Shown here: positions 3,096 to 64,000 of the stretch, in pieces
How the letters are laid out: each line of letters starts with the position of its first letter
Numbering within the stretch: position 1 is the first letter of the stretch
DNA from: Escherichia phage PHB11
Length of the DNA: 64,000 bases
Sequence record: MK524176.1
Strand: one strand, 5' to 3'
Notes under the pieces: generated by a model
What the model saw: only the letters and a program-made list of their open reading frames with translations
Told to the model about the DNA's origin: nothing
Databases searched by the model: none
Position numbers and translations under genes: made by a program

Positions 3096-3542
3096 ATGGC
3101 TATGTATCAGCAATATTCCCCTAAAGACGTTGTATGTAGCTGGAATGGCATTGCTATTGAAGGCTTTGCTCCAGATTCATTCTTGCGTCTACAGAGAACA
3201 TCACCACTTATTACACCAGTTGTAGGTGCGGGTGGTCAGGTTGCTCTGACAAGAAATGCAGACAAGACAGGTACTATTGAGATTGAGCTAATGCAGACTT
3301 CTCTCTCTAATCAGATGCTTTCTGCAATTCAAGCTAAACAAGACAATATGGAACTTGAAGAAGATATCTCTTCTAACTTCGTAATCTACGACCCATCAGG
3401 CTCTGTTCTGGCAACTGGTATTAATGCTTGGTTGCAGGAACTACCGCAGATTGAACTTGGTCGTGACCAGAACTCTAAGACTTGGATTTTTGGTTGTGAG
3501 AAGCTAGACTACACTTCTACAATTCCAGCGTCAAGTGTTTAA
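3096..3542 (+). CDS. Putative tail tube protein
   Basis: 148 aa, between sheath candidate and chaperone pair; followed by an intrinsic terminator. Confidence 0.45.
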   Translation: MAMYQQYSPKDVVCSWNGIAIEGFAPDSFLRLQRTSPLITPVVGAGGQVALTRNADKTGTIEIELMQTSLSNQMLSAIQAKQDNMELEEDISSNFVIYDPSGSVLATGINAWLQELPQIELGRDQNSKTWIFGCEKLDYTSTIPASSV

Positions 3543-3554
3543 TAAATCCTATAA

Positions 3555-3588
3555 GGGGGAGACTTTAAAAGGTCTTCCCCTTTTTTGT
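3555..3588 (+). terminator. Intrinsic terminator after the tube gene
   Basis: GGGGGAGAC-TTTAAAA-GGTCTTCCCC hairpin followed by a T-run. Confidence 0.6.
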
Positions 3589-3615
3589 TTCTTTTAAAAG
3601 TATTAAGGAATCACA

Positions 3616-4014
3616 ATGAAAACAGAAGCTAGAGTAATTAATGGTAAGAAAGTAAATATCATTCTGCTTGGGGCAAGAGATGGTATTAAGATGTCTATGA
3701 AGTTGGGTAAAATTGTTGTTCCAACTTTTGCACAGATGCTATCAAGTCTGACTGATAAAGATAAGAAAGAAGTTCCAATGGTTCCATTTAAAGAACTTGT
3801 TGAGGCTTGTTTTGACAGAATTGAAGAAATTAACCTTGAAGAAATGGCTACCCTGCTATTTCAAGGGGCAACTGTTGATGACTTCCCACTTAATATTGAT
3901 ACATACTTCCAAGCAAACTATGGCGAATTTATTGATTACTTAGCATTTGCGCTGGAGGCAAACTTCGGAAGTTTTTTCGAAGCAAGCATTTTCAAAAGCC
4001 TAACTTCTCAGTAA
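3616..4014 (+). CDS. Tail assembly chaperone (gpG-like, zero-frame product)
   Basis: 132 aa ORF immediately upstream of the tape measure gene; contains slippery heptamer TTTTTTC near its 3' end. Confidence 0.5.
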   Translation: MKTEARVINGKKVNIILLGARDGIKMSMKLGKIVVPTFAQMLSSLTDKDKKEVPMVPFKELVEACFDRIEEINLEEMATLLFQGATVDDFPLNIDTYFQANYGEFIDYLAFALEANFGSFFEASIFKSLTSQ

Positions 4015-4256: not shown

Positions 4257-9619
<5,363 letters not shown>

Positions 9620-13472: not shown

Positions 13473-15842
13473 ATGGCAGATTACAAATTGAGTCAATTAA
13501 ACTCAATCGACACAATTCGTTCAGAAGACCTATTGCACATCAGAGTTAAGAAAAGACCTGAAATGTTGGGTGACGAAGACCGTAGAATGACCTATCAAGA
13601 CTTCTTAGCTTCCTTCAAACTAGAAAGGTTTGTTCAGATTGCTGGGAGTACTATGGTTGGGGATTTAGGTATTGTCAAGTTACTTTACGGTGGCAAGGCT
13701 GTATTTGACCCAACAGATTCTTCTGAGATTACTATTGGGGATGTTTTAAAGACTTTTAAAATTAACGCAAATGGTCTTAAACTAACTATTGCAGATGCTT
13801 CAAGGTCGGCAACTGTTTATCATACTTTGAATAAGCCAAGCCCTAATGAGCTTGGGATGAGAACTAATGAAGAGAATGATGCAAGATATGCAAGGCTTGC
13901 TGTCACAAATAACTTCAGCATTAGGCAAGCAATCATAACTGATGGTGAGCAGTTAACTCTTAAGAAGGCAACCAATGCAGGTGCTTCATATATTCAAGGT
14001 AGAGATACTAATAACCAGCAAACTTGGTATGTTGGACAGGGAAATGCAAACAGCACTAATGTTTATTTGTACAATCATGCTACTGGTGCAATGTTAACCC
14101 TTGATGCAACAGCAGCATTTAATAAGTCACTTAGAATCACTGGACAAGTTCAACCTTCGGATTTCTCTAACTTAGATGCTAGATACTTCACTCAGACAGT
14201 TGCTAATCAGAGATTTGCACAGTTAGCTGGTAATAACACTTTTACAGGTGCTAATACATTTAATAACTATATCAGTGTGAACTCTAATGCTGCTGCTATC
14301 GTGCTAAAAAATAAGTCTGCTAATGAGTCTTTGTACATCCTAGCAAAAGATGTTGAAAACAATAATCTGTGGTTTATTGGTAAAGGTAGTGCAAATGACA
14401 ATATCACATTTTATGATTACAAGGGCAATACTTCTATTGTATTAAACTCGTCTGGTGCTGCATTCAGCAAGACTGTAAAAATCACTGGTCAAGTCCAACC
14501 TTCAGATTGGGCTAACATTGACTCTAGATATATTCCGGCAGATATTTTAAGCAATCTTGCTAAAATTAATGTAACTAACACATTTACCTCCCAGCAAATT
14601 ATCCAAGCAAATGGTGAAGCTATTAGGCTAAAAAACTCTTCTGAGAACTCACCATTGTATATCAGAGCACAGGACAACACTGGTGCTTATAGGTGGTATG
14701 TAGGTAATGGCTCGGGGAGTGATGATGTCACCATCCGCAATCACAAGACAGATTGTGAGGTTATCCTATCTAGTGTCGTTGCTATTAATAAAACATTAAG
14801 CATCACTGGTCAAGTTAAACCCTCAGATTTCTCTAACTTAGATGCTAGATATTACACGCAATCTACCGCAAACTCTAGGTATATGCTTGCTTACTCTTCT
14901 GGCAGTGGTACAGAGGTGGGTGAGAGTGATGGTATTGTTTGGAATGCTAAAACTGGTCTGTATAATGTGTATAATAAATCTGGTGGCTCAACACAGCTAG
15001 TCTACCATATGTATCAGGGTACAAGTTCTACACCATCTGCACAGTTTAAGTTTATCTACAGGAATGGTGGTATTTTTTACAGGACAGCACGAGATGGGTA
15101 TGGTTTTGAGCAGGCATGGGCTAAAATCTATACAGACCAAGATAAACCAACCCCTTCAGAGATTGGTGCGTACACTAAAGCTGAAACTGACCAGAAGATT
15201 GCAGAAGCGATTAGTGACTCTACAGACCTGAATAAAATCTATCCAGTAGGTATTGTGACGTGGTTTAACAGTAATGTTAACCCTAATACAGCACTTCCTG
15301 GGTTAACTTGGACGTACCTGAACAATGGTGTTGGTAGAACTATTAGAATTGCAGCAGCAAACGGTTCAGATGTTGCTACAACTGGTGGTTCAGATTCTGT
15401 AACACTATCTGTTGGTAACTTACCTTCACACACGCATAGTTTCTCTGCTACCACTTCATCATTTGATTATGGTACTAAGACGACAAATACGACTGGCAAC
15501 CATGCTCATGATAGAGGTAACATGGAAATTTCTGGTGTGTTTGGTTGGTTCAGAAGTGATAACGGTGCATTCTACACTGCTAGTGGTGCATTTGTGATGG
15601 GTGGTAGTCAGGCTTCGCATGGCTTCACAGGCTCTAACTTCACTTATGGTGCGCCTGTTGATTTCCACGCGTCAAGAACTTGGACAGGTGTAACCAACAC
15701 GACTGGTAACCACGCCCACAGTGTAGGTATTGGCGCTCACAGCCACACAGTTAGTGGTAACACAGGTGGTACTGGTTCTGGTTCAGCATTTAGTGTTACT
15801 AACCAGTTCTATAAGCTAATGGCTTGGGTAAGGACTGCTTAA
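13473..15842 (+). CDS. Tail fibre protein (long), paralogous to 12251..13426
   Basis: 789 aa; three internal repeats (...ITGQVQPSDFSNLDARY.../...ITGQVQPSDWANIDSRY.../...ITGQVKPSDFSNLDARY...); HxH motifs near C-terminus; ends ...AWVRTA. Confidence 0.6.
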   Translation: MADYKLSQLNSIDTIRSEDLLHIRVKKRPEMLGDEDRRMTYQDFLASFKLERFVQIAGSTMVGDLGIVKLLYGGKAVFDPTDSSEITIGDVLKTFKINANGLKLTIADASRSATVYHTLNKPSPNELGMRTNEENDARYARLAVTNNFSIRQAIITDGEQLTLKKATNAGASYIQGRDTNNQQTWYVGQGNANSTNVYLYNHATGAMLTLDATAAFNKSLRITGQVQPSDFSNLDARYFTQTVANQRFAQLAGNNTFTGANTFNNYISVNSNAAAIVLKNKSANESLYILAKDVENNNLWFIGKGSANDNITFYDYKGNTSIVLNSSGAAFSKTVKITGQVQPSDWANIDSRYIPADILSNLAKINVTNTFTSQQIIQANGEAIRLKNSSENSPLYIRAQDNTGAYRWYVGNGSGSDDVTIRNHKTDCEVILSSVVAINKTLSITGQVKPSDFSNLDARYYTQSTANSRYMLAYSSGSGTEVGESDGIVWNAKTGLYNVYNKSGGSTQLVYHMYQGTSSTPSAQFKFIYRNGGIFYRTARDGYGFEQAWAKIYTDQDKPTPSEIGAYTKAETDQKIAEAISDSTDLNKIYPVGIVTWFNSNVNPNTALPGLTWTYLNNGVGRTIRIAAANGSDVATTGGSDSVTLSVGNLPSHTHSFSATTSSFDYGTKTTNTTGNHAHDRGNMEISGVFGWFRSDNGAFYTASGAFVMGGSQASHGFTGSNFTYGAPVDFHASRTWTGVTNTTGNHAHSVGIGAHSHTVSGNTGGTGSGSAFSVTNQFYKLMAWVRTA

Positions 15843-19117: not shown

Positions 19118-19417
19118 TTAATCTGCCAGCCTTAAATTAAAATTAACACCAAATTTTTCACATACTTCCAACATAAACTCAAGAGAGACATTACCAGTGA
19201 GATTAATTATGTTGGATACACGAGCCTGAGAGATACCACAAATTTTAGCAACTTGCTCTTGAGAAAGACCTCTGGATTTAATCTCTCTCTTAAAACGATG
19301 TGCAACGAAATCTCTCATTTCGTCTACATCCATTGGACAAATATAACTCTCCATTTCAGCCTCTCTGTCAGCCTCCCAACCATCTTGTGGAGCATAAGGG
19401 TCAAAAACCTCATTCAT
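19118..19417 (-). CDS. XRE-family helix-turn-helix DNA-binding protein
   Basis: HTH motif GLSQEQVAKICGISQARVSNIIN; start placed at internal Met (19417) that has an upstream GGAAGAAGAAAG SD-like sequence; the ORF track begins at 19447. Confidence 0.5.
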   Translation of the reverse strand: MNEVFDPYAPQDGWEADREAEMESYICPMDVDEMRDFVAHRFKREIKSRGLSQEQVAKICGISQARVSNIINLTGNVSLEFMLEVCEKFGVNFNLRLAD

Positions 19418-19622
19418 CTTTCTTCTTCCGTTTACGTGAAGTGTCAATCAATGAATCTATGTTTGTAGCCCTAACCTTTTCACGTTCATCGTTAAGATAA
19501 TCATCAAGAGCCTTCTCAATCTGTGAATCATCTTGACAGATAACTGTAAAGACTGTAAAGCCATCTGTATCATCAATTATCTTACCATAACCGCTTCTGG
19601 GATGTAACTTTTTAAGAGCCAT
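19410..19622 (-). CDS. Hypothetical small protein
   Basis: 70 aa ORF overlapping the HTH gene start. Confidence 0.3.
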   Translation of the reverse strand: MALKKLHPRSGYGKIIDDTDGFTVFTVICQDDSQIEKALDDYLNDEREKVRATNIDSLIDTSRKRKKKDE

Positions 19623-23638: not shown

Positions 23639-24154
23639 TCAACTTAGTTTTGCAAACTCTCCGTGGAGTTTTATCGCAGCTTCACAGTAAGCTTTATGGG
23701 CCTCTTCTTCTGTTGTGTACGTCCCGATATGTATAGTCTTACCATTATGGCTAATCTGGGCTTTCCACTTACCAGACTTACTTCTACTTGTACCTTTTAA
23801 GTTTTTTGATGTTCTAGGTTGCCTCCTATTAGACATGTTCTGTTCTTTTGTGGCCTCTCTAAGATTGTCCCAAGCATTATTCAAACCGTTCCCGTCTTTG
23901 TGGTCAATATGATTGTCAGGCCACTTACCTGTCATCCAGAACCAAGCAATTCGGTGATTGCCTGTCCTGTATCCTAAAATCTGGGTTTGCATATACACAC
24001 CAGACCTTGTGCGCTTGATTGTACCAGCCTGTCTTCCAATCACCACCCTACTGCTATGTGGAGGTCTGCCAATCCAAGTCAAGACCCCTGTTTCGGGGTC
24101 GTAGTCTAACCAAGATTTTAACTGTTCATGTGTGAATCCACAATCTCTCATCAA
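23639..24154 (-). CDS. HNH homing endonuclease with AP2 DNA-binding domain
   Basis: HNH_3-type motif HIDHKDGNGLNNAWDNLREAT and AP2-like block GKWKAQISHNGKTIHIGTYTTEEEAHKAY; 4 nt overlap with the DNA polymerase gene. Confidence 0.7.
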   Translation of the reverse strand: MMRDCGFTHEQLKSWLDYDPETGVLTWIGRPPHSSRVVIGRQAGTIKRTRSGVYMQTQILGYRTGNHRIAWFWMTGKWPDNHIDHKDGNGLNNAWDNLREATKEQNMSNRRQPRTSKNLKGTSRSKSGKWKAQISHNGKTIHIGTYTTEEEAHKAYCEAAIKLHGEFAKLS

Positions 24155-26850: not shown

Positions 26851-26910
26851 TTTTACTCCCTCTAAAATCATTAACCCCATACATTACTGCAAAAAATTAT
26901 AAAAAGCAAG

Positions 26911-26940
26911 TTGACAATGTACTTGACAAGGTGTTAATCT
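26911..26940 (+). promoter_or_regulatory. Candidate rightward promoter(s) in the divergent pol / 27108 intergenic region
   Basis: Two TTGACA hexamers (26911-26916, 26923-26928) with only weak -10 candidates (TTAATC/TAATCT); a perfect TATAAT on the - strand at 26896-26901. Confidence 0.3.
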
Positions 26941-27107
26941 TTGCGAAGTGGGTTTTTACTTAAAAGGTTACTTAACAGTTTAACTATACAGATACTTTAA
27001 AACTCTTAAAAGATTATTTAATAGCTTTTAAAAAGCTTTAAAGTATAACGTATAGAATACGTTAAGATAAAAGATTAAAACTTAATAGTTACTTAAAAGA
27101 GGCTTAC

Positions 27108-55353: not shown

Positions 55354-56139
55354 ATGGGTATTGTAAAAATTATCAAAGGCAACATCTTTGACGCATTTGA
55401 TAAAGGTAAGTTTGATATCATTGGTCATGGTTGCAACTGTATGAATTTCATGGGTGCAGGTATTGCAGCAACTATTTCTAAGCGTTATCCAAAAGTATAT
55501 GATACTGATACAGAAGTTTACCTGTTTGCAGGTGGTATTCGTCACAAACCATGTGAAAATCTGCTAGGTAATTTCTCTGTAACACGTTTAAAACAAGGCC
55601 GTATAGCCAATCTTTACACCCAGCTTCATACCGGTAAAGATGCCCGATATAGTGCTTTAGAGTCATCTTTGAAACAGCTTAACAGATACTGTGAAGTTAA
55701 TCAGTTGAAGAAAGTTGGGTTACCTATGATTGGTGCAGGTATCGGTGGACTAGACCCTCAAGCCGTCACAGTTATCATTAATCAGGTGATGAAGAGTGTA
55801 GATGTTTACCTGTATGTCTATGAGACAGAGATGTACAACGAGTTACACTCAGGTTGGAAGAACTACTGTGAACCAGAATACTTTGCAGGTGTAGTAGTGT
55901 TCACTGATGATGCAGTTACCCTCTTCAGACGAAGAAAAGGCAAGATACATCAAAGTAACCCTCCGGTTGAAAAGATGTCTCTAAGTAACGCTCTAGTTAC
56001 CCACCTGTCGAAGAGCAATCACAGAATTGCAGTAACATTTGGCAGTGATGCAGATACATATATCTATGCAAGAACTGATGAGGATATCGAGACGGTCTTC
56101 TCTTCACCGGAAGTAACCTTCTTAGACGCAAAGAACTAA
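55354..56139 (+). CDS. Macro-domain protein (ADP-ribose binding/processing) with C-terminal extension
   Basis: Macro-like blocks IIKGNIFDA, DIIGHGCNCMNFMGAGIAATI and VGLPMIGAGIGGLDP. Confidence 0.55.
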   Translation: MGIVKIIKGNIFDAFDKGKFDIIGHGCNCMNFMGAGIAATISKRYPKVYDTDTEVYLFAGGIRHKPCENLLGNFSVTRLKQGRIANLYTQLHTGKDARYSALESSLKQLNRYCEVNQLKKVGLPMIGAGIGGLDPQAVTVIINQVMKSVDVYLYVYETEMYNELHSGWKNYCEPEYFAGVVVFTDDAVTLFRRRKGKIHQSNPPVEKMSLSNALVTHLSKSNHRIAVTFGSDADTYIYARTDEDIETVFSSPEVTFLDAKN

Positions 56140-56207
56140 GAAACTCTGTAGAATATTCACAATAGGTTAAGCCTTTCTTATCTGGTAAATTTTTCAGGTA
56201 AGGAGGG

Positions 56208-56406
56208 CTTTTTCATTTCAGGATTGTGCAGGTAGAGTTCTGGACAGAAATCTGTAGAGAAAATTTTGAACTCCAAAGAGAAAATTCATTTTCAAACTGT
56301 GCAGGTAATCTCCAAAGAGCTTTTTCATTTTCAAAACGTGCAGACCCCGCTCAGGTCGGGCAAGAAAAATCATTTTAGAATTGTGCAGGTAGGTGGGTGC
56401 AGGTGG
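56208..56406. repeat. Iteron-like direct repeat array in non-coding DNA
   Basis: Four to five copies of TTCATTT(T)CA-N4-5-TGTGCAGGTA (TGTGCAGGTA at 56225, 56298, 56382; degenerate CGTGCAGAC at 56337; GTGCAGGTG at 56397); adjacent 38-39 bp tandem pair starting CTCCAAAGAG at 56271 and 56310. Confidence 0.6.
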
Positions 56407-56568
56407 GGATGTCGCCATTTCTCACAAGGCTACCACATCTGAAAAGAAAAGTCAACAGAAAAATTTGTAGCGGATTGAAAAATAATTCTTGATTGTAGTT
56501 CTGTTTTGTGGTAGTCGCGTGCGCCCGTTTCATTACAGTTTTTGCAAAAAATATTTTTAAAATTCCTA

Positions 56569-56597
56569 TTGACTCTTTGAATATGGTTATCTAATAT
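56569..56597 (+). promoter_or_regulatory. Sigma70-like promoter for the first early gene
   Basis: TTGACT, 17 bp spacer, TAATAT, about 50 nt upstream of ATG 56648. Confidence 0.45.
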
Positions 56598-56647
56598 TTG
56601 CATCAGACGGGCAATCAAGCCCACTTCCTAAACTGGAGAATCAAAAA

Positions 56648-56854
56648 ATGCTTTACAGTCGTGAATTGATGGTTACAACTAACGTTAACACAAAGGTAAA
56701 ACGTTTTTATATGCAAGTGTGCGGCGCATGGCGTAGAATATCAGAAGCTGACTATTGCAACTATGTAGAAACGGCTATTAATTCTAATTGCTACCTTACA
56801 ATAAACACTAAGAAGTTTACAAGACAGACAGCAATTTACTACTACGATAAATAA
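56648..56854 (+). CDS. Small early-region protein, unknown
   Basis: 68 aa; TIR CCTAAACTGGAGAATCAAAAAATG. Confidence 0.4.
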   Translation: MLYSRELMVTTNVNTKVKRFYMQVCGAWRRISEADYCNYVETAINSNCYLTINTKKFTRQTAIYYYDK

Positions 56855-56945
56855 AAAAGTACTTTACAGGGGGCTTAAAAGCTGATATCTTAAGCCCCAG
56901 ATAAAGAGCTTTACTAAACTAACCCTTAAACTAGGAGATTCAAAA
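56855..56945 (+). promoter_or_regulatory. Early cassette, class A
   Basis: AAGTACTTTACA, hairpin GGGGCTTAA-N11-TTAAGCCCC (TTTACA-17-TATCTT overlaps it), AGATAAAGAGCTTTAC, TIR ...CTAGGAGATTCAAAAATG. Confidence 0.45.
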
Positions 56946-57326
56946 ATGGCTTATCGTGCACCTAAATTCATCAACAAAGACAACTTTCGCAACGCACTGG
57001 AGAAGTCACTTGATGAAAATTTTAAAGGTAATATTATCGTTGTTCACGCATTCAATTTTAAGTATGATGTAAACGGGAATAGAATCAACCATTACACAGC
57101 AACCATGTTAGATGGTACGCTATCAAGTGAAAAAGCTGTACTGAATGCACTTGCAGGACGTGGTAAAAACCTGATAAGATGCGATAAGAGACGTTATCAG
57201 GGTGGCGCATATGGTTATGATGATGCTGTTTATCATCTTGAAAATATGGGCTATTCAGTGGAAAAAGCTGGAGTGTCTCAAATAATCGGCAGTGACGGCT
57301 ATGTGACAATTTTCAAAATTAACTAA
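56946..57326 (+). CDS. Small early-region protein, unknown
   Basis: 126 aa ORF preceded by a class A cassette. Confidence 0.45.
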   Translation: MAYRAPKFINKDNFRNALEKSLDENFKGNIIVVHAFNFKYDVNGNRINHYTATMLDGTLSSEKAVLNALAGRGKNLIRCDKRRYQGGAYGYDDAVYHLENMGYSVEKAGVSQIIGSDGYVTIFKIN

Positions 57327-57414
57327 TAAAGTACTTTACAGGGGGCTTATAGTTCGATAAAGTAAGCCCCAGATAAAGAGCTTTACCACTAAATCCTAAA
57401 TTGGAGATTCAAAA
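57327..57414 (+). promoter_or_regulatory. Early cassette, class A
   Basis: TAAAGTACTTTA palindrome overlapping the upstream stop, GGGGCTTA...TAAGCCCC hairpin, conserved TIR. Confidence 0.45.
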
Positions 57415-57705
57415 ATGGCTATTATTAAAAACGTTGTAATTCCTGCAAAAACTCGTGATGACGCTCGCATCATGGCGAAAAAGTTAGGCGGGAAAGTGGT
57501 TGACAACGGAAAACAAACTGCTGTAAGGTGGAACGTGAAGGCGGATAAACAAATGAATTTAAAAAATTCACCAATAAACCTTTTTACATGTGTAAACACT
57601 ATCGGGAAAACGAATGTATACACTAAAAAGGCATATATCAGACGCATCGCCATGACGTCACCTATTCGCACAATGAGAAGTCATGCAAAGCTGAAAATTA
57701 AGTAA
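57415..57705 (+). CDS. Small early-region protein, unknown (basic)
   Basis: 96 aa ORF preceded by a class A cassette. Confidence 0.45.
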   Translation: MAIIKNVVIPAKTRDDARIMAKKLGGKVVDNGKQTAVRWNVKADKQMNLKNSPINLFTCVNTIGKTNVYTKKAYIRRIAMTSPIRTMRSHAKLKIK

Positions 57706-57795
57706 TAGAGTACTTTACAGGGGGCTTAAAAGCTGATATCTTAAGCCCCAGATAAAGAGCTTTACCACTCAATCCTTAAACTAGGAGATTCAAAA
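57706..57795 (+). promoter_or_regulatory. Early cassette, class A
   Basis: GAGTACTTTACA, GGGGCTTAA...TTAAGCCCC hairpin, conserved TIR. Confidence 0.45.
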
Positions 57796-58308
57796 ATGAA
57801 AACTGTAGACGCTACCTTTGAAGTTGTAAAAGAAAAATTTTCCATCATTTACGAAGCTGTCAATTGCTACGAAGCAAGCCATAATCTTGATAATTGGAAG
57901 TTTACAGATGACCATCAAGGCGGTGTGACTATTAAAAACCCCAACTGTCAGCGTAATGGATTTAAATATGCAATTCCTTTACATTACAGCCTTAAACAGC
58001 TTTCAATTGACTATGCAAAACAAGGCCGGGAAAATCCATCGAAAGAGGCTTACATCAGCTTACAGAAAGAACTAGAAAGAGATTTAGAGGCTTCAGAATA
58101 TAACATCGCCGCGAAAGTTGTAGATGCAAACGGTAGCACGGTTTTAGAGAGTTTTTATATTGGTTATGCTTTCGATTGGTGCTACAGTGACGGCGATGAT
58201 TTAGATGACAGACTAAAAGAGGAAGTGAACAACGCAGACGCAGAATCTGAAGTATTAGAACGCTTGGAAGCATTAAAAGATTCAGTGATGAATATCTTTA
58301 AGAACTAA
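57796..58308 (+). CDS. Small early-region protein, unknown (acidic C-terminus)
   Basis: 170 aa ORF preceded by a class A cassette. Confidence 0.45.
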   Translation: MKTVDATFEVVKEKFSIIYEAVNCYEASHNLDNWKFTDDHQGGVTIKNPNCQRNGFKYAIPLHYSLKQLSIDYAKQGRENPSKEAYISLQKELERDLEASEYNIAAKVVDANGSTVLESFYIGYAFDWCYSDGDDLDDRLKEEVNNADAESEVLERLEALKDSVMNIFKN

Positions 58309-58399
58309 ATAGATTTCTTTACACGGGGCTAACAAGCGGATATGATAGCCCCAGATAAAGAGATTTATCAAATTAACCCTTAAACTAGGAGATTCAAAA
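58309..58399 (+). promoter_or_regulatory. Early cassette, class A variant
   Basis: TTTACA, 17 bp spacer, TATGAT with compensating hairpin GGGGCTA...TAGCCCC; conserved TIR. Confidence 0.45.
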
Positions 58400-58696
58400 A
58401 TGAAATTATCAAATAAAGTTAGGGAAAACCTTAGCAAATTACTCAACAAAATTGATTTTATAGAGACATCAAGGAATAGTCATGATGTTATGGAATGGTT
58501 ACACGGCAAAATAAAAGGCCGTCGTGTAGTGATTTGCTTATGGAATAGTTGCAGGGAGTATAAAAAGCCTGTATTGCAAATTAATGTTTATGATGATACT
58601 TTTAAAAGTCCTGTAAAGTCTAAAAGCGATTTATTAGAATCCTATGAGATAACTGTAAATGGCAAAGTATCACGTAAAGAGGAAACACCATGTTAA
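58400..58696 (+). CDS. Small early-region protein, unknown
   Basis: 98 aa ORF preceded by a class A cassette. Confidence 0.45.
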   Translation: MKLSNKVRENLSKLLNKIDFIETSRNSHDVMEWLHGKIKGRRVVICLWNSCREYKKPVLQINVYDDTFKSPVKSKSDLLESYEITVNGKVSRKEETPC

Positions 58697-59022
58697 TGAC
58701 TGGTATCACTGCAATCATTGCCATTTTCGCGCTATATAAGGCATATAAAGCCTATAATCTAGCAAATAAGGCAATCACACAGCAAGTTAGCAATAACCTT
58801 GTAGAGAGCTTTCTAGGGCGTTTAAGTGATGAGCAAATAAAGCGGCTAGAGATGAGCTTCAGATATAAAGCGAAAACCTATCAGATAAGTGACATCTTCA
58901 AAGATGATTTCCAGTTAGTTGATGATTATAATTCTCTGATAAATGCTTTAAACATCAGTGACTTGAAAGACTATCACGCTGTAATTGTTCAAGAATTGAG
59001 CAAACGAAAACAAAGTGTTTGA
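58690..59022 (+). CDS. Small early-region protein, unknown
   Basis: 110 aa ORF overlapping the upstream stop; N-terminal hydrophobic helix. Confidence 0.4.
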   Translation: MLMTGITAIIAIFALYKAYKAYNLANKAITQQVSNNLVESFLGRLSDEQIKRLEMSFRYKAKTYQISDIFKDDFQLVDDYNSLINALNISDLKDYHAVIVQELSKRKQSV

Positions 59023-59113
59023 CACTGATTTTTAGATAGGTTAAATTACACATCAACGGGGAGGGGATGACCTTCCCCACTAAATAAAGTCCTTAAACTA
59101 GGAGATTCTAAAA
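59019..59113 (+). promoter_or_regulatory. Early cassette, class B (promoter, 5' UTR hairpin, TIR)
   Basis: TTGACA, 17 bp spacer, TAAATT, ATCAACGGGGAGGGGATGACCTTCCCC hairpin, ACTAAATAAAGTCCTTAAACTAGGAGATTCTAAAAATG. Confidence 0.5.
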
Positions 59114-59272
59114 ATGTTTTGTGCAGGTGATAAAGTTGTCTGGAATGATATAGATGACGGTTTATGTACGAAAGTTGTTGTTATCTTAGAAATTGATTAT
59201 ATCACTGGTGTTGCAACTGTAGCAGATAATGATATAATCTTTGATGTCTTAATTAGTGAACTGTCAAAATAA
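59114..59272 (+). CDS. Small early-region protein (not in ORF track, 52 aa)
   Basis: ATG right after a class B cassette; translation MFCAGDKVVWNDIDDGLCTKVVVILEIDYITGVATVADNDIIFDVLISELSK. Confidence 0.4.
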   Translation: MFCAGDKVVWNDIDDGLCTKVVVILEIDYITGVATVADNDIIFDVLISELSK

Positions 59273-59297
59273 AGTCCTTAAACTAGGAGATTCAAAA
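59273..59297 (+). promoter_or_regulatory. TIR-only module (no own promoter), operonic with 59114..59272
   Basis: AAAGTCCTTAAACTAGGAGATTCAAAAATG immediately after the upstream stop. Confidence 0.45.
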
Positions 59298-59570
59298 ATG
59301 TACACTACTAACAACGGTCGCACCTTAAATGCAACCCTACGCCACTATGTGAACGGTGTAATGCACTTCGAGGATTTACAAGCTGAACAGCACATTTTGG
59401 ATTGGCAACTTGCAGGATTCCAAAAAACTGCTACCGGATACGGGAAAAAGATTCCAACTAGCTGGAAAGTATACTACGAAGGCCGTTTGCGTAGAATTTA
59501 TCAAGATGTATGCGGCAATAGCGCATCAAGTTACATCATAGTAAAAGGCAAAAAGCTGCATTTAGCATAA
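59298..59570 (+). CDS. Small early-region protein, unknown
   Basis: Start set at MYTTNNG (59298); the track start 59256 reads through the conserved TIR. Confidence 0.45.
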   Translation: MYTTNNGRTLNATLRHYVNGVMHFEDLQAEQHILDWQLAGFQKTATGYGKKIPTSWKVYYEGRLRRIYQDVCGNSASSYIIVKGKKLHLA

Positions 59571-59655
59571 AGTACTTTACAAGGGGCTTATAAGTCTGTA
59601 CAGTAAGCCCCAGATAAAGAGCTTTACCACTAAATCCTAAATTGGAGATTCAAAA
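59571..59655 (+). promoter_or_regulatory. Early cassette, class A
   Basis: TAAAGTACTTTA palindrome, GGGGCTTA...TAAGCCCC hairpin, conserved TIR. Confidence 0.45.
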
Positions 59656-60060
59656 ATGGCTATTAATAATCGTGAGTTATCTATCTTAAAAGCACGTTTG
59701 ACCGTTAACCGGATTAATGTTATCACATCAGCAGCACCGGATGAAACACTGCAAAACATTATTGGGAAGATTCAAAGTGTTATCTTAGACGTTGAAAGCG
59801 TAAAAAACTCATTGGCTGACGTTGCAGCCGGTATCACGCTAGACGGTGCACAACATGAGATGGCCGACATGTTAGGCAAATCAAAGGTAATGAATAAAGA
59901 ATTAGACTTGAAAATGTTTCGATTTGCTGTTAAAGTGTGGCTATCCGTCGAGTATGACGCTAATTTTGCAATCGCTGATTTCTTTGCCACTTGGTTACAA
60001 CGTAACTTAACAAATCATGATTTCCGTGATGTCTGTGATGCAATCTACGCAGAACTTTAA
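59656..60060 (+). CDS. Small early-region protein, unknown
   Basis: 134 aa ORF preceded by a class A cassette. Confidence 0.45.
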   Translation: MAINNRELSILKARLTVNRINVITSAAPDETLQNIIGKIQSVILDVESVKNSLADVAAGITLDGAQHEMADMLGKSKVMNKELDLKMFRFAVKVWLSVEYDANFAIADFFATWLQRNLTNHDFRDVCDAIYAEL

Positions 60061-60160
60061 AAAGATGTTGACACTGATTTTTAGATAGATTAAATTACTC
60101 ATCAACGGGGAGGCAATAACCTCCCTACTAAATAAAGTCCTTAAACTAGGAGATTCTAAA
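60061..60160 (+). promoter_or_regulatory. Early cassette, class B
   Basis: TTGACA (60068-60073), 17 bp spacer, TAAATT, ATCAACGGGGAGG...CCTCCC hairpin, conserved TIR. Confidence 0.5.
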
Positions 60161-60358
60161 ATGGCTATTATTAACGGCTTAACCATTGAAACAACACACA
60201 TCAAAGATATCAAAGTTGGTGATGTAGTCCTTTCCCACGGCGTAGAAAAAACTGTCACTGCAAAGGATATCAAAGAGGATTCTTTCATGGGTAGAACTCT
60301 CTTCGGTGATTCTTATTGCTTAGGTTATCTTGCAGTTTTAAAAGTTGTCAAAAATTAA
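60161..60358 (+). CDS. Small early-region protein, unknown
   Basis: 65 aa ORF preceded by a class B cassette. Confidence 0.4.
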   Translation: MAIINGLTIETTHIKDIKVGDVVLSHGVEKTVTAKDIKEDSFMGRTLFGDSYCLGYLAVLKVVKN

Positions 60359-60450
60359 GTAATAAAGTACTTTACAAGGGGCTTAAAAAGTTGGTATCTT
60401 AAGCCCCAGATAAAGAGCTTTACACAGTCCTTAAACTAGGAGATTAAAAA
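60359..60450 (+). promoter_or_regulatory. Early cassette, class A
   Basis: TAAAGTACTTTACA, GGGGCTTAA...TTAAGCCCC hairpin, TIR variant CTAGGAGATTAAAAAATG. Confidence 0.45.
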
Positions 60451-60699
60451 ATGATGAATTATTTAAACATTCCCGACACTTGCAAACTGTTAACGCAACC
60501 AGAAAATTTAGGTAAGGCTTACCTATACCATATGCCAAATAATACGGCAAAAACTTATAGTTACACTGTTAACCGATTCACGGCATACGCTGCAAAAAAC
60601 GGTTACAAGGTTGTTACTCAAAAAGTAACACTGTTTACAACTGTTGAGGAACTCCCCACGGTTGCAGTTAAACTGATTTTTTCAAAGAAAACTAAATAG
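60451..60699 (+). CDS. Small early-region protein, unknown
   Basis: 82 aa ORF preceded by a class A cassette. Confidence 0.45.
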   Translation: MMNYLNIPDTCKLLTQPENLGKAYLYHMPNNTAKTYSYTVNRFTAYAAKNGYKVVTQKVTLFTTVEELPTVAVKLIFSKKTK

Positions 60700-60784
60700 A
60701 TTTCTTTACACGGGGTTATCAAGCTGATAAGATAGCCCCAGATAAAGAAATTTATCAAATAAATCCTAAACTGGAGATTCAAAA
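60700..60784 (+). promoter_or_regulatory. Early cassette, class A variant
   Basis: TTTACA, 17 bp spacer, TAAGAT with hairpin GGGGTTATC...GATAGCCCC; conserved TIR. Confidence 0.45.
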
Positions 60785-61327
60785 ATGAAATGTTTTCACG
60801 GTACTACTCAAGAAAACTTTATCAACCTGATTAATAACGGTGATAAACCATCAGGCGCATGGAATTGTTCTGATATGGATGGGAATTTTTACGTTTACCC
60901 AGAGAATAAAATCTATGGCGACGATGAGGAAGAAATAATCTTTGAAGGTATCCAGCAAGCTCTGGGCAATGCCACTATCACCGCAGCTTTTCAGATGAAA
61001 ACTCAAAACATTGTTATCTTGGAACTTGAGATTCCAGAAGATGAGCTAAACGATGATTATTCTTGTGATAATATGTCGAGCGTGGCAAGTTTTACAGAAT
61101 ATTTCGATTTAAATTGGATTAAAAAGGTTTACATCACTGAATTTAATGCTATGTATTCGCCTTTTTGTCTTCCTTCACTGGATAACCCAAATATGAATTA
61201 TCTTGATGAGACATTAGAACTACTTGCTAAAAGTGTTCAACAATCGGACAGTATTCAGGTTTTTTGTGACATCATGGACACACTAACGGAAAACATCGCA
61301 GAAGAGGATTTAAAGAGCTTTTTCTAA
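60785..61327 (+). CDS. Small early-region protein, unknown (acidic)
   Basis: 180 aa ORF preceded by a class A cassette. Confidence 0.45.
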   Translation: MKCFHGTTQENFINLINNGDKPSGAWNCSDMDGNFYVYPENKIYGDDEEEIIFEGIQQALGNATITAAFQMKTQNIVILELEIPEDELNDDYSCDNMSSVASFTEYFDLNWIKKVYITEFNAMYSPFCLPSLDNPNMNYLDETLELLAKSVQQSDSIQVFCDIMDTLTENIAEEDLKSFF

Positions 61328-61359
61328 AAACCTATGCAATCACATTATAAACACTATTC

Positions 61360-61380
61360 AGCCCCTTGTAGGGGCTTTTA
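61360..61380 (+). terminator. Intrinsic terminator inside the early array
   Basis: GCCCC-TTGTA-GGGGC hairpin followed by TTTT. Confidence 0.55.
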
Positions 61381-61393
61381 AGAGGCTTAAATC

Positions 61394-61627
61394 ATGCTTA
61401 CAACCGTTTATCTTATCCTTTCTATATGTAATGGTCATTCATGCGATTTTAAAGGGCTTGAAGAGTTTACAGGAAGTAAAGAAAATGCTATTCAAGTTTG
61501 CCAGATAGCGAGACAAGACTATCCCGCAAGTGATGATATTCAGTGTTACTTTAAGACAGAAGATGAAGACGGTATCTATTTTGACAGTGTAGATGGTCAA
61601 TATGAAATTATCATTGAAAAAGACTAG
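61394..61627 (+). CDS. Small early-region protein, unknown
   Basis: 77 aa ORF with AGAGG SD; lacks the conserved cassette. Confidence 0.4.
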   Translation: MLTTVYLILSICNGHSCDFKGLEEFTGSKENAIQVCQIARQDYPASDDIQCYFKTEDEDGIYFDSVDGQYEIIIEKD

Positions 61628-61716
61628 ACAAGCCTGATAAAAGTCTGTAAATTGTCAATCAACGGGAGGGATGACCTTCCCCACTAAATAAAGTCCTTAA
61701 ACTAGGAGATTCAAAA
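61625..61716 (+). promoter_or_regulatory. Early cassette, class B
   Basis: TAGACA, 17 bp spacer, TAAATT, ATCAACGGGAGGGATGACCTTCCCC hairpin, conserved TIR. Confidence 0.45.
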
Positions 61717-62058
61717 ATGGCTTATGTAACCGTAATTACCGATAAAGCTGGCGCATCTTGGTCAACTCAAGTAAGCGATAAGATGTCACCTATGCAGTGC
61801 CTAAAATACTTTGAGCAATGGAACAAAGGCGAGGAAACAAGCCCCTTTCAAGTAATGCAGATTATCCATACAGATAACGAAGGGAAGAAAACTGTTTTGA
61901 ATAGTGAGTACTACGCAACCAGATTTGAAACGAGAAGTAAAGCAATGAAGCTCTTACGTGAATCCGGTTATTCTCATATTGCCGCGCTAATCTGGGATGA
62001 CCTCCTAAAAAGTCAGCGTATCAGCTACGTAAAACCTGAAAAAATATTCATCAGCTAA
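61717..62058 (+). CDS. Small early-region protein, unknown
   Basis: 113 aa ORF preceded by a class B cassette. Confidence 0.45.
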   Translation: MAYVTVITDKAGASWSTQVSDKMSPMQCLKYFEQWNKGEETSPFQVMQIIHTDNEGKKTVLNSEYYATRFETRSKAMKLLRESGYSHIAALIWDDLLKSQRISYVKPEKIFIS

Positions 62059-62090
62059 TCAATAACTTACAAAAAACTTTTAAAAAAGTG

Positions 62091-62119
62091 TTGACAATAC
62101 CCCTTGACATTGGTAATGT
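62091..62119 (+). promoter_or_regulatory. Additional promoter-like element with tandem TTGACA boxes
   Basis: TTGACA at 62091 and 62104; TAATGT 17 bp after the first. Confidence 0.35.
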
Positions 62120-62187
62120 TGTTCGAGGGGGTTTATCTAAAAGGGATTCACTTAAAAGATTCTTTATAGATAAACTGAAAAAATTGC

Positions 62188-62278
62188 TTGCAATCAGATA
62201 TCAAAGCAAGTAAATTACTAATCAACGGGAGGGATGACCTCCCCACTAAGTAAAGTCCTTAAACTAGGAGATTCTAAA
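62188..62278 (+). promoter_or_regulatory. Early cassette, class B
   Basis: TTGCAA, 17 bp spacer, TAAATT, ATCAACGGGAGGGATGACCTCCCC hairpin, TIR ...CTAGGAGATTCTAAAATG. Confidence 0.45.
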
Positions 62279-62809
62279 ATGAACAAGTTCAAAGCTATCA
62301 ATTACATTCGTTCAAATAGTGTTATGTCAAAACCTGTTAAAGACACTTACGAATTCCGTTGCAATGGTGTACACTTCGCAACCATCACCAAATCAGAAAA
62401 CGGGGCTTATTACGTCCATCGCCGTAATGTTGCAACTGTTGTAGTCTCTCATTTTATGCAAGCTATCGCGGAATTATTACCGTTATTCTTAGAGATTTAT
62501 CTAGATGATTGTAAAAACGTTCACAATCACGTTAAAAACCTTTTAAATGGTTATAAAATGGCTTATGAACGTTCTATCAAGTCCTTGAACAAGTTCTATA
62601 AAGCCCCTGTAAATACCGTTTCAATGGCCTACGGTATAGGTGGCTGGACTGTTAACCTTTCTCTAGTGGAAGAAATCGAACTTTATGATTTACGTCCTAG
62701 CGGTTACTCTAAGACACTGGGAGAAGGTTTAACGTTCAATATCAAGAACTTAGAAAAAACTTTAAAAGATATTGAAAAAGATATTGACGAGACAATCAAA
62801 AATCTGTAA
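62279..62809 (+). CDS. Small early-region protein, unknown
   Basis: Start set at MNKFKAI (62279); the track start 62234 reads through the TIR. Confidence 0.45.
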   Translation: MNKFKAINYIRSNSVMSKPVKDTYEFRCNGVHFATITKSENGAYYVHRRNVATVVVSHFMQAIAELLPLFLEIYLDDCKNVHNHVKNLLNGYKMAYERSIKSLNKFYKAPVNTVSMAYGIGGWTVNLSLVEEIELYDLRPSGYSKTLGEGLTFNIKNLEKTLKDIEKDIDETIKNL

Positions 62810-62878
62810 ATTGTCAATCAACGGGGAGGGGATGACCTTCCCCACTAAGTAAAGCCCTTAAACTAGGAGATTCAAAAA
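62784..62878 (+). promoter_or_regulatory. Early cassette, class B; promoter embedded in the 3' end of the upstream gene
   Basis: TTGACG, 17 bp spacer, TAAATT (overlapping stop codon), ATCAACGGGGAGGGGATGACCTTCCCC hairpin, conserved TIR. Confidence 0.45.
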
Positions 62879-63127
62879 ATGGCAACTATCCGCGCAACTG
62901 TTAACGAATTTGGCTTCTACTCTCTGGATGTTAAATTTGACCTTGTAGGCACTAACAACGCCTTTGAAATGGTGAAAGGCCTTATCAGTCAGATAATCAA
63001 AGATTATAATCCTTCGGATGAGTTCTGGGAAGAAACAAAACAGGAAGTTTTTACGCATGGTCACACTTATTACTATTGGGGAGAAAAAATCGTCTCCTTG
63101 TACTACGATAAACAAGGTTGCAACTAA
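62879..63127 (+). CDS. Small early-region protein, unknown
   Basis: 82 aa ORF preceded by a class B cassette. Confidence 0.45.
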   Translation: MATIRATVNEFGFYSLDVKFDLVGTNNAFEMVKGLISQIIKDYNPSDEFWEETKQEVFTHGHTYYYWGEKIVSLYYDKQGCN

Positions 63128-63165
63128 TCAACGCAACGGGGCTAAATAGCCCCAGATACCTGAAC

Positions 63166-63191
63166 AGCCCCTATTTAAAGGGGCTTTTTTA
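63166..63191 (+). terminator. Intrinsic terminator closing the early array
   Basis: AGCCCCT-ATTTA-AAGGGGCT hairpin followed by TTTTTT. Confidence 0.6.
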
Positions 63192-63529: not shown

Positions 63530-63994
63530 CTTGTTAGTGTCTTAAAAGTATGTTATAGGGGCTTAAAAGTTACTTTGAAGTAGCTTAAAAGTTACTTTGA
63601 AGTAGCTTAAAAGTTACGTAAATGCTAGCCCCCTTAACATTTTCTTAACAATTTCTTAACAAACCCTACATAGTTATGCTTTTAAGGCACTTGTTAGCAA
63701 CTTGTTAGCCCCTTGTTAAATCTCTGTTAATACCTCGTAAAAGCCTTGTAAGAGCCTTTGGCATAGCCTTTAAAGCCCCTGTAAAGCCCTATAAAGAGCT
63801 TTCTATATAGTTGGGGTGTAATTACTAGAAAGAGACTAAAAAGAGCTTATAAGGAGCTATAAAGGGCTTTTAAGAGGGCTATTTAAAAGGTCACTAAGAG
63901 GGAAAGGGAACGATAAGAAAAGAGATAGTGACCATGTTAACAGCTTGTTAAAAAGATTAAACACTTGTTAGGAACTTGTTAATTATCTTAACAA
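63530..63994. repeat. Cluster of CTTGTTA(R) motifs in both orientations in non-coding DNA
   Basis: CTTGTTAG/CTTGTTAA at 63530, 63690, 63701, 63712, 63944, 63964, 63975; inverted CTTAACAA at 63644, 63655, 63987. Confidence 0.6.
63561..63617. repeat. Tandem direct repeat, 22 bp unit, about 2.6 copies
   Basis: GCTTAAAAGTTACTTTGAAGTA at 63561 and 63583, partial copy at 63605. Confidence 0.7.
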
Positions 63995-64000
63995 AATAAC

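Follow-up and report, generated by a model that had tools for sequence, protein, structure and literature searches.

Iterons of theta-type origins, as found in lambda ori, RK2, R6K, pSC101 and F, are direct, co-oriented and asymmetric sites of approximately 19–22 bp, unique in their replicon, which are spaced at about 22 bp and combined with an AT-rich unwinding element and a Rep-type initiator. Asymmetric, orientation-dependent repressor sites are known from mycobacteriophage L5 (the stoperators) and from P1 (the C1 operators). In T7, the primary origin sits at the boundary of early and middle genes. The first-step-transfer DNA of T5 amounts to 7.9% of the genome and ends at an untranslated repeat region, which is conserved more strictly than the nearby coding DNA (10.1101/866236). 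Here, an array of four direct repeats (56208 to 56392, 185 bp) in a non-coding gap of Escherichia phage PHB11 (MK524176.1) is described, the window, i.e. the whole stretch of DNA analysed, being 64,000 nucleotides long. About 7 kb from the physical genome end, the array forms the inner border of a terminal early-gene block. In its form it resembles the iterons of theta-type origins, so that the term "iteron-like" used in a first-pass annotation of the window is a fair description, and the array adds a new, clearly delimited case with deep conservation to a kind of element that is already familiar. Since all five lineages examined keep the motif, the array is probably the docking array for a putative sequence-specific DNA-binding protein. 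We infer binding itself, as well as the identity of the binder and the effect of binding, from the sequence.

The motif TCATTTYNNNNNYGTGCAG (TCATTT-N7-GTGCAG) was found without mismatch at 56213–56231, 56286–56304, 56325–56343 and 56370–56388, in all cases on the plus strand and thus co-oriented with the direction of transcription. The start-to-start spacing is 73, 39 and 45 bp. No further exact copy was detected in the 64-kb window or in the complete genome of phage Pr103Blw (88,421 bp). When up to two mismatches were allowed, eight matches were counted in the window compared to 2.12 ± 1.42 in 100 shuffled sequences, none of which reached eight; the four matches outside the array are scattered sites with two mismatches. 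The complete plus-strand units are CTTTTTCATTTCAGGATTGTGCAGGTAG (unit 1, 56208–56235, kept at its position in every terminator-bearing lineage), AAAATTCATTTTCAAACTGTGCAGGTAA (unit 2, 56281–56308, an exact motif match), CTTTTTCATTTTCAAAACGTGCAGACCC (unit 3, 56320–56347) and AAAAATCATTTTAGAATTGTGCAGGTAG (unit 4, 56365–56392). Units 1 and 3 are of a T-tract type, units 2 and 4 of an A-tract type. Unit 3 ends with GTGCAGA instead of GTGCAGG (the copy terminates with GTGCAGAC, not with GTGCAGGTA), and this ending is found at the same position in every genome examined. The first-pass annotation had counted four to five copies. Four of these are exact, while the supposed fifth one (GGTGCAGGTG, 56396–56405) is a 3' GTGCAGG half-site present in some strains only. 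The tandem duplication of 38–39 bp reported there was recovered as a 39-bp duplication with 82% identity between 56271–56304 and 56310–56343. A decayed plus-strand unit, AATCTGTAGAGAAAATTTTGAACTCCAA, accompanied by a second short repeat, CTGTAGAGAAA, is probable at 56249–56276, because the 73 bp between units 1 and 2 correspond to two of the 37-bp periods seen in Erwinia phage phiEa21-4. A CRISPR array, against which the first-pass annotation had already argued, was rejected: the units are imperfect (62–82% identical to each other over 34 nt), their spacing is irregular, the "spacers" are conserved across strains and genera and no CRISPR entry of Rfam was matched.

The 2.5 kb flanking the array match those of over 140 phages of the Felix O1 type (Felixounavirus, Ounavirinae) at 92–96% identity, with Escherichia phages SME50 and Shy as nearest relatives, and by this measure the window belongs to a Felixounavirus. 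In every Felixounavirus locus examined, the array follows a gene encoding a macro-domain protein. It is found at the matching place in Mooglevirus and Suspvirus (SFPB plus contigs), with a unit spacing of 75/41/45 bp in SFPB, and in Hafnia phage Zyzzx, with a spacing of 55/43/53 bp. The Kolesnikvirus phiEa21-4, which infects Erwinia, carries four regular units (37/37/39 bp). Even metagenomic contig L129 has the array, although its proteins are just 30–45% identical to those of the window. Conservation in relatives, which had been proposed as a check, was therefore found well beyond close relatives, since five lineages have kept the motif although their flanking DNA can no longer be aligned. 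The gaps of the window and phiEa21-4 are not alignable, and nearly all 8-mers common to both lie inside the units, including exact 17- and 18-mers; the 18-mer GGCAAGAAAAATCATTTT is shared by unit 4 and a phiEa21-4 unit.

Twenty units from the five lineages could be aligned without gaps. Each consists of a G, an interchangeable A4 or T4 tract, T-TCATTTT, six less constrained bases and GTGC, usually followed by A. The consensus, (A4/T4)T-TCATTTT-N6-GTGC-A, holds approximately 29.5 bits of information and therefore enough for uniqueness in an 88-kb genome. Among 19 distinct Felixounavirus sequences, 10% of the core columns are variable, compared to 30–39% of the other columns in the array and 48–52% of those downstream and in the promoter. 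A scan of IMG/VR for the exact pattern retrieved paired units only in contigs of Ounavirinae size (84–94 kb), plus one probable chance match, and meaningful matches of a BLAST search with two units were limited to Ounavirinae. The chance match, two similar motifs in the 10-kb IMG/VR contig L127, lies within a 50-bp tandem repeat. Paired units were also searched for in 185,579 genomes for host counterparts, where only unrelated tandem repeats in non-enteric taxa were retrieved and none in Enterobacterales. Synteny does not reach beyond Ounavirinae in Pseudomonas phage PaP1, which has a homologue of the macro-domain gene without gap or array. The motif is conserved better than the proteins encoded around it, and its partner may therefore evolve slowly, as would be expected of core phage machinery or of a host protein present throughout Enterobacterales. 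A description of the motif or of the module containing it was not found in the searchable literature.

The gap comprises 508 bp (56140–56647) and is bounded by the stop codon of the macro-domain gene and the ATG with which the small early genes begin; the repeats are thus non-coding, as had been claimed. In GenBank records it is either unannotated or carries terminator and promoter only. The macro-domain gene on its left (55354–56139, Pfam Macro) is often annotated as "phosphatase". Its product consists of an N-terminal macro domain (residues 25–141) and a C-terminal part of approximately 100 residues without family match. The counterpart in L129 is a macro domain only (148 aa), and because the array is still kept there, the C-terminal part is unlikely to be the array binder. 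At the left edge of the gap, a terminator scan identified an intrinsic terminator hairpin with a 17-bp stem (56169–56210, plus strand), which ends the rightward operon of about 29 kb (ΔG −24.4 kcal/mol, z −7.6, none of 200 shuffled sequences as stable). It is kept in Felixounavirus and Mooglevirus, and an analogous hairpin is present in phiEa21-4. Unit 1 overlaps the T tract of this terminator (56208–56218) in Felixounavirus and Mooglevirus, and phiEa21-4 has a partial copy only at this place.

Downstream of the array, a variable segment (56392–56446, plus strand) is G-rich in the window strain, where it includes the pseudo half-site GGTGCAGGTG. Of the 18 distinct Felixounavirus sequences aligned, 12 (about two thirds) have the G-rich version; in the remaining Felixounavirus strains and in all other genera, its place is taken by a C-rich pyrimidine tract, e.g. 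CCCCTCTCCCCCTCTTACTCCCCCTCTCCCC. Both versions were compared at the matching position in L008, L012, L013, L020, L024, L030 and L125. The C-rich version is approximately 30 nt long with about 70% C, unusual in a genome of 39% GC, and its minus strand has runs of four or five Gs which could form a G-quadruplex. The segment is followed on the plus strand by a highly conserved non-coding block (AAAAGTCAAcAGAAAAATTTGTAGCGGATTGAAAAATAATTCTTGA..., 56447–56540), which Mooglevirus and Suspvirus share and of which the Hafnia phage has a part, and by an AT-rich UP-like element with a sigma-70-type promoter (56538–56597). The UP-like element spans 56538–56568 and the promoter consists of TTGACT (56569–56574), 17 nt and TAATAT (56592–56597). 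The promoters of the early block start with this one; in phage ASO1A a promoter is annotated at the matching place, and equivalents were found in SFPB and phiEa21-4. The remaining part up to the first early gene (56609–56650, plus strand) contains a 5'-UTR (untranslated region) hairpin (56609–56622), the ribosome-binding site GGAG (56635–56638) and the ATG at 56648. The distance between the last unit and the −35 element is 199 bp in the window, 194 bp in SFPB, 223 bp in phiEa21-4, 241 bp in L129 and about 130 bp in Zyzzx.

Terminator, array, pyrimidine-rich tract, conserved block, UP element and strong sigma-70 promoter form a fixed module, which sets the terminal block, with its individually promoted early genes, apart from the long DNA-metabolism operon. 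No sigma-70-like site was detected within the array on either strand, the only promoter-like site of the gap being that at 56569–56597. Since the array lies between a strong terminator and the first promoter and has no sigma-70-like site of its own, it looks untranscribed. The first-pass annotation had placed the repeats in an AT-rich region, which does not hold: the gap has 62.4% AT and the array 61.6%, compared to 61.2% for the whole window.

Further short repeats were observed in the gap. The motif (C/T)TGTAG(A/C)G recurs at 56147, 56253, 56466 and 56494. A motif of the TGTAG type is arranged in tandem with a 14-bp period (AAAAATCTGTAGAG) in Zyzzx (L131, 1624–1651) and in most Felixounavirus strains, and the tandem CTGTAGAGAAAAAT is present in Zyzzx. 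In the space between array and promoter, Zyzzx has four copies of CTTTACA about 10–12 bp apart (L131, 1689–1744), and L129 (reverse complement, 5600–5780) has approximately ten 9-mers containing TTAACA, several of them within one mismatch of a DnaA box (e.g. TTATTAACA).

According to the mechanism proposed here, the four units would be recognition sites at the DNA level for one putative sequence-specific protein. Each site is asymmetric and built of two parts, with the A4/T4 tract and box A (T-TCATTTT) separated by six bases from box B (GTGC-A). Both boxes are about one helical turn apart, a layout pointing to a monomer that contacts the DNA with two of its parts. A tandem repeat of approximately 38 bp, still regular in phiEa21-4, is the probable ancestor of the sites. 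Bound to them, the protein would form a nucleoprotein boundary which controls transcription across the junction, and this boundary might insulate the early block from upstream read-through or might modulate or silence the first early promoter. Control of early transcription in this way is supported by the fixed tie between array and terminator, by units oriented along the direction of transcription and by the position within a module of several parts. The L5 stoperators and the P1 C1 operators offer the nearest parallel for such a role, as these sites are likewise asymmetric, probably bound by a monomer, intergenic, oriented along transcription and able to block RNA polymerase. In contrast to the four clustered copies in a virulent phage described here, they are scattered in dozens of copies over temperate phages and have a known repressor.

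Several observations weigh against a control function of this kind. The only recognisable helix-turn-helix (HTH) regulator in the replication module (19121–19447, minus strand, phrog_1373) is absent from some relatives in which the array persists. Homologues were found in Felixounavirus, Suspvirus and Mooglevirus and in none of the Erwinia or Hafnia phages (E ≤ 1e-3), and this distribution rules the HTH regulator out as array binder, although a binder of an unrecognised type may exist. No domain was recognised in any protein of the early block. Consensus scans for DnaA, IHF, Fis and CRP sites found nothing common to all lineages, and to our knowledge none of the sites of sigma-54, sigma-E, sigma-32, MarA/SoxS, ArgR, Fur, NtrC, XerC/D, Chi or Tus fits the motif. 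The units neither overlap nor adjoin a promoter, and the distance to the promoter, 130–240 bp and variable between lineages, argues against classical stereospecific activation or repression. Furthermore, the 17-bp-stem terminator already insulates the junction well, which makes the need for additional roadblocks doubtful. Pairs of regulator and operator usually diverge fast between genera, and the deep conservation observed here would fit a protein of the core machinery or the host better. A boundary controlling early transcription is therefore proposed tentatively, with a probability of roughly 0.35.

The block downstream of the module contains about 16 small open reading frames (ORFs) on the plus strand (56648–63185) and is closed by a terminator at 63166–63185. 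Its genes (56648–63127) occupy the last approximately 6.5 kb of unique sequence and are transcribed toward the right genome end. The designation as early is based on the anatomy of the block. In total, 44 promoter-like sites were detected in it compared to 22.5 ± 5.1 expected, 12 of which are intergenic and on the plus strand, and nearly each of the small genes has its own sigma-70-like promoter. The spacers (56855–56945 and others up to 62880) reuse one module, which starts with a TTTACA −35 element, continues with a GC-rich hairpin (GGGGCTTAA...TTAAGCCCC) across spacer and −10 and ends with AGATAAAGAGCTTTAC and a strong ribosome-binding site. The Felix O1 genome paper (PMC3185647) had noted this module as a 57-bp repeat. 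Since its hairpin is not followed by a T tract, it may be a site for RNA processing or stability rather than a terminator.

For the position of the array relative to the genome ends, the short direct terminal repeats of two related phages were used, 608 bp in UAB_Phi87, mapped with Bal31 (PMC4837284), and 581 bp in Pr103Blw (PMC8303462). Both repeats are annotated in the GenBank deposit of Pr103Blw. The annotated 581-bp repeat aligns to 63628–64000 of the window with 88% identity and continues past the window end, so that the direct terminal repeat starts on the plus strand at 63628, in agreement with the mapped ends of UAB_Phi87. In the UAB_Phi87 sequence, the homologue of the repeat is located at 15152–15765. 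With ends at this position, the terminal SpeI fragments should measure 2751 and 4431 bp; the published ones are 2819 and 4322 bp (PMC4837284), an agreement within 2.5%. On the basis of this fragment fit and the alignment, the window end is the right terminal repeat, i.e. the right physical end of the genome. The repeat starts at 63628, approximately 7.2 kb downstream of the array, and the array is accordingly separated from the right end by about 6.9 kb, or 7.8% of the genome. Measured in the complete sequence of Pr103Blw, this distance ranges over the four units from 6.7 to 6.9 kb (7.6–7.8%).

The gap itself was also considered as genome end or terminal repeat, an attractive candidate given that repeats of 581–608 bp are about as large as the gap. 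It was rejected with the mapping of the repeat to 63628 onwards. The SpeI site at 19582 plus 2819 bp coincides with the gap edge, which is judged to be chance because the matching 4322-bp fragment cannot be placed. Several records or contigs end inside the gap (L014, L016, L021, L122, FSL SP-010, KhF1, EC106 and TH10), without a common coordinate. These ends are explained by the switch between the G-rich and C-rich versions in assemblies of mixed strains, by adapter read-through (L016) and by a chimera (L021). L021 (IMG/VR 3300045988_004180), an 89-kb metagenomic Felixounavirus contig, contains 200 bp (3498–3698) with 100% identity to mukE/mukB of E. coli. The switch sits in a short GC-rich hairpin right after unit 3, and the stretch is most likely an assembly or library chimera. 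L016, the sister contig of L021, terminates in Nextera adapter sequence. Two records labelled Campylobacter phage A132 and A126 (MG065664.1 and MG065668.1) and one labelled Staphylococcus consist of Felixounavirus sequence with approximately 95–96% identity to the window and are probably mislabelled or contaminated deposits.

The first-pass annotation had offered a replication origin or a multi-site operator as function of the repeats. Asymmetric direct repeats of about 20 bp, unique in the genome, were indeed found; the hallmarks of an origin were not, and an operator is unproven. An origin, with the array as iterons for a phage initiator or a component of the replisome, is conceivable but doubtful. 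There are at least three co-oriented direct repeats, namely four units with a conserved core of 19–23 bp (four to five asymmetric sites of about 20 bp), and their two-part layout would suit a monomer contacting two successive major grooves, as in iterons. Like these, the array lies in conserved non-coding DNA near a promoter. The non-coding region is large, and downstream of the array it contains a conserved block of moderately high AT content, then a GC-rich clamp and then a strong promoter. The phage has a T7-like replisome with a primase-helicase of the T7 gp4 type (Toprim and DnaB_C domains), and the T7 origin at the border of early and middle genes occupies a similar place. Recognition by the core replication machinery would also suit a conservation deeper than that of the neighbouring proteins. 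Binding together with negative supercoiling behind the outward-firing early promoter might, if the array were an origin, open the DNA for loading of the primase-helicase, a scheme which is likewise considered doubtful. However, the units are spaced at 37–75 bp and out of helical phase (37–39 bp being 3.5–3.7 turns) instead of at about 22 bp, and no Rep-like family was found in PHROGs scans of 20 ORFs from the replication module, most of which have no assigned function. An AT-rich unwinding element does not adjoin the array, at whose downstream edge the tract rich in G or C begins directly; strongly AT-rich DNA is limited in the gap to one stretch (56540–56564, 92% AT), which belongs to the UP-like element of the promoter, approximately 150 bp away. 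GC skew right of the gap falls rather than rises, and the least stable DNA of the window lies elsewhere, at 26.98–27.09 kb, about 4 standard deviations from the window mean. As judged from these features, the region at 26.88–27.11 kb would be a better origin candidate than the array. A transfer function, in which the array would act as DNA-entry pause signal like the injection stop signal of T5, is considered improbable. If the right end entered first, the cell would receive and express the early block before the array engages a virion-delivered or envelope-associated protein; entry would pause at this point until the early proteins release it. The array would in this case be an entry or partitioning checkpoint element of Felix O1-type myoviruses which holds the genome after the terminal 7.8% has entered, and a T5-like two-step transfer would have evolved independently in a myovirus with short terminal repeats; this reading is judged equally improbable. 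The resemblance concerns the position, 7.6–7.8% from the right end and at the inner border of the early block compared to 7.9% in T5, and a conservation exceeding that of the neighbouring proteins, which binding by core virion or host machinery would explain. T5 Repeat Region 3 similarly consists of untranslated repeats which border a terminal early block approximately 8% from one end and are more strictly conserved (10.1101/866236). Because nearly every early gene has its own promoter, expression in the order of entry would be possible. All four phiEa21-4 units, moreover, end in a DnaA box with one mismatch, and the consensus scan found one such box in a unit of L129. This similarity is absent in Felixounavirus and Mooglevirus (TGTGCAGGT, three mismatches, compared to the one mismatch allowed in the scan) and in the Hafnia phage, and a two-step transfer in Felix O1-type phages is not reported in the searchable literature. 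The T5 region, 1.2 kb long, is rich in inverted repeats and palindromes, has numerous paired DnaA boxes and is located mostly inside the terminal repeat of about 10 kb, with an overrun of 270 bp into unique sequence (10.1101/866236). In contrast, the 185 bp of the array hold direct repeats only, without inverted-repeat architecture, the terminal repeat is just 581 bp long and about 7 kb away, the early block lies outside it, and no large A1-like nuclease is encoded in the block, all ORFs of which have at most 191 aa.

A function of the units in RNA, as unstructured Rho-loading (rut) sites or as sites for an RNA-binding protein in a read-through or leader transcript, is considered improbable. 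All units are in sense orientation, the plus-strand RNA is less structured than shuffled controls and a C-rich, G-poor tract follows the array in most lineages. On the other hand, a very strong intrinsic terminator and no promoter precede the array, and the window strain and many others carry the G-rich segment in place of the C-rich tract. Rfam has no match to the array, the lone match being a chance miRNA outside of it. No stable secondary structure was predicted for either strand of the array (fold z-scores +1.39 for the plus strand and −0.24). Two fixed boxes one turn apart and an interchangeable A/T tract suggest readout of the shape of double-stranded DNA rather than recognition of RNA. 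The units might also be a cluster of promoters of the early block, for the host polymerase with a phage factor or for a phage polymerase, comparable to the tandem promoters A1–A3 of T7 and the three early promoters of N4, which serve as models here. They are tandem, co-oriented and conserved elements of approximately 23 bp just upstream of the early genes and nowhere else. Similar to the left end of T7, conserved tandem non-coding elements at the border of the early region are combined with a direct terminal repeat and a gp4-type primase-helicase; the early genes are, however, transcribed toward the nearby genome end, those of T7 away from it. None of the promoter consensus sequences tested is matched by the units. 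No unit has −35 and −10 hexamers at a spacing of 16–18 bp, the expected −10 position is the least conserved part, the boxes are too close for the sigma-70 family and the GG of sigma-54 is missing. In addition, a gene for a phage RNA polymerase is not reported in the Felix O1 genome paper (PMC3185647), and a promoter cluster is considered hardly probable. Units 1 and 3 have GCTTTTTCATTT in common with the terminator tail and the spacing is now irregular in Felixounavirus, as would be expected of a functionless relic, i.e. decaying tandem duplications of the 3' half of the terminator carried along by linkage. This explanation already appears largely refuted by the conservation data and is the least credible: the core is kept across lineages with 30–45% protein identity and unalignable flanking non-coding DNA, and variable columns are three to five times rarer in it than in the non-coding DNA next to it.

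The region at 26881–27107 is a divergent intergenic region between the DNA polymerase gene (minus strand) and the primase-helicase operon (plus strand). Three TTACTTAAAAG repeats are located in it, together with a pair of adjacent TTGACA boxes and a near-palindrome of 27 nt. Directly downstream of the DNA polymerase gene, an HNH homing endonuclease (phrog_99, E 2e-64) is encoded on the minus strand (23642–24154). A description of the origin of Felix O1-type phages was not found in the searchable literature.

Classic as typing phages of Salmonella, the Felix O1-type phages are now also widely used in cocktails for biocontrol and therapy and, in the case of Bas63, as engineering chassis. The temporal regulation of Felix O1 transcription was called unknown in the genome paper of 2010 (PMC3185647), and in the main text of the PhageMaP study of Bas63 no result is given for the intergenic region described here. 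In Bas63 (MZ501086), the array is located at about 64.1–64.3 kb. With the terminator, the array and the first early promoter, a compact control module is defined at the border of the early block, which is conserved across the subfamily. Its motif of 19–23 bp gives a direct handle on early regulation or replication in this widely used group of phages. For genome engineering, the module is a region best left undisturbed, and it marks the boundary of the largely dispensable early block. Any protein binding to the array is likely a key conserved player of early infection, be it a regulator, an initiator or an entry factor.

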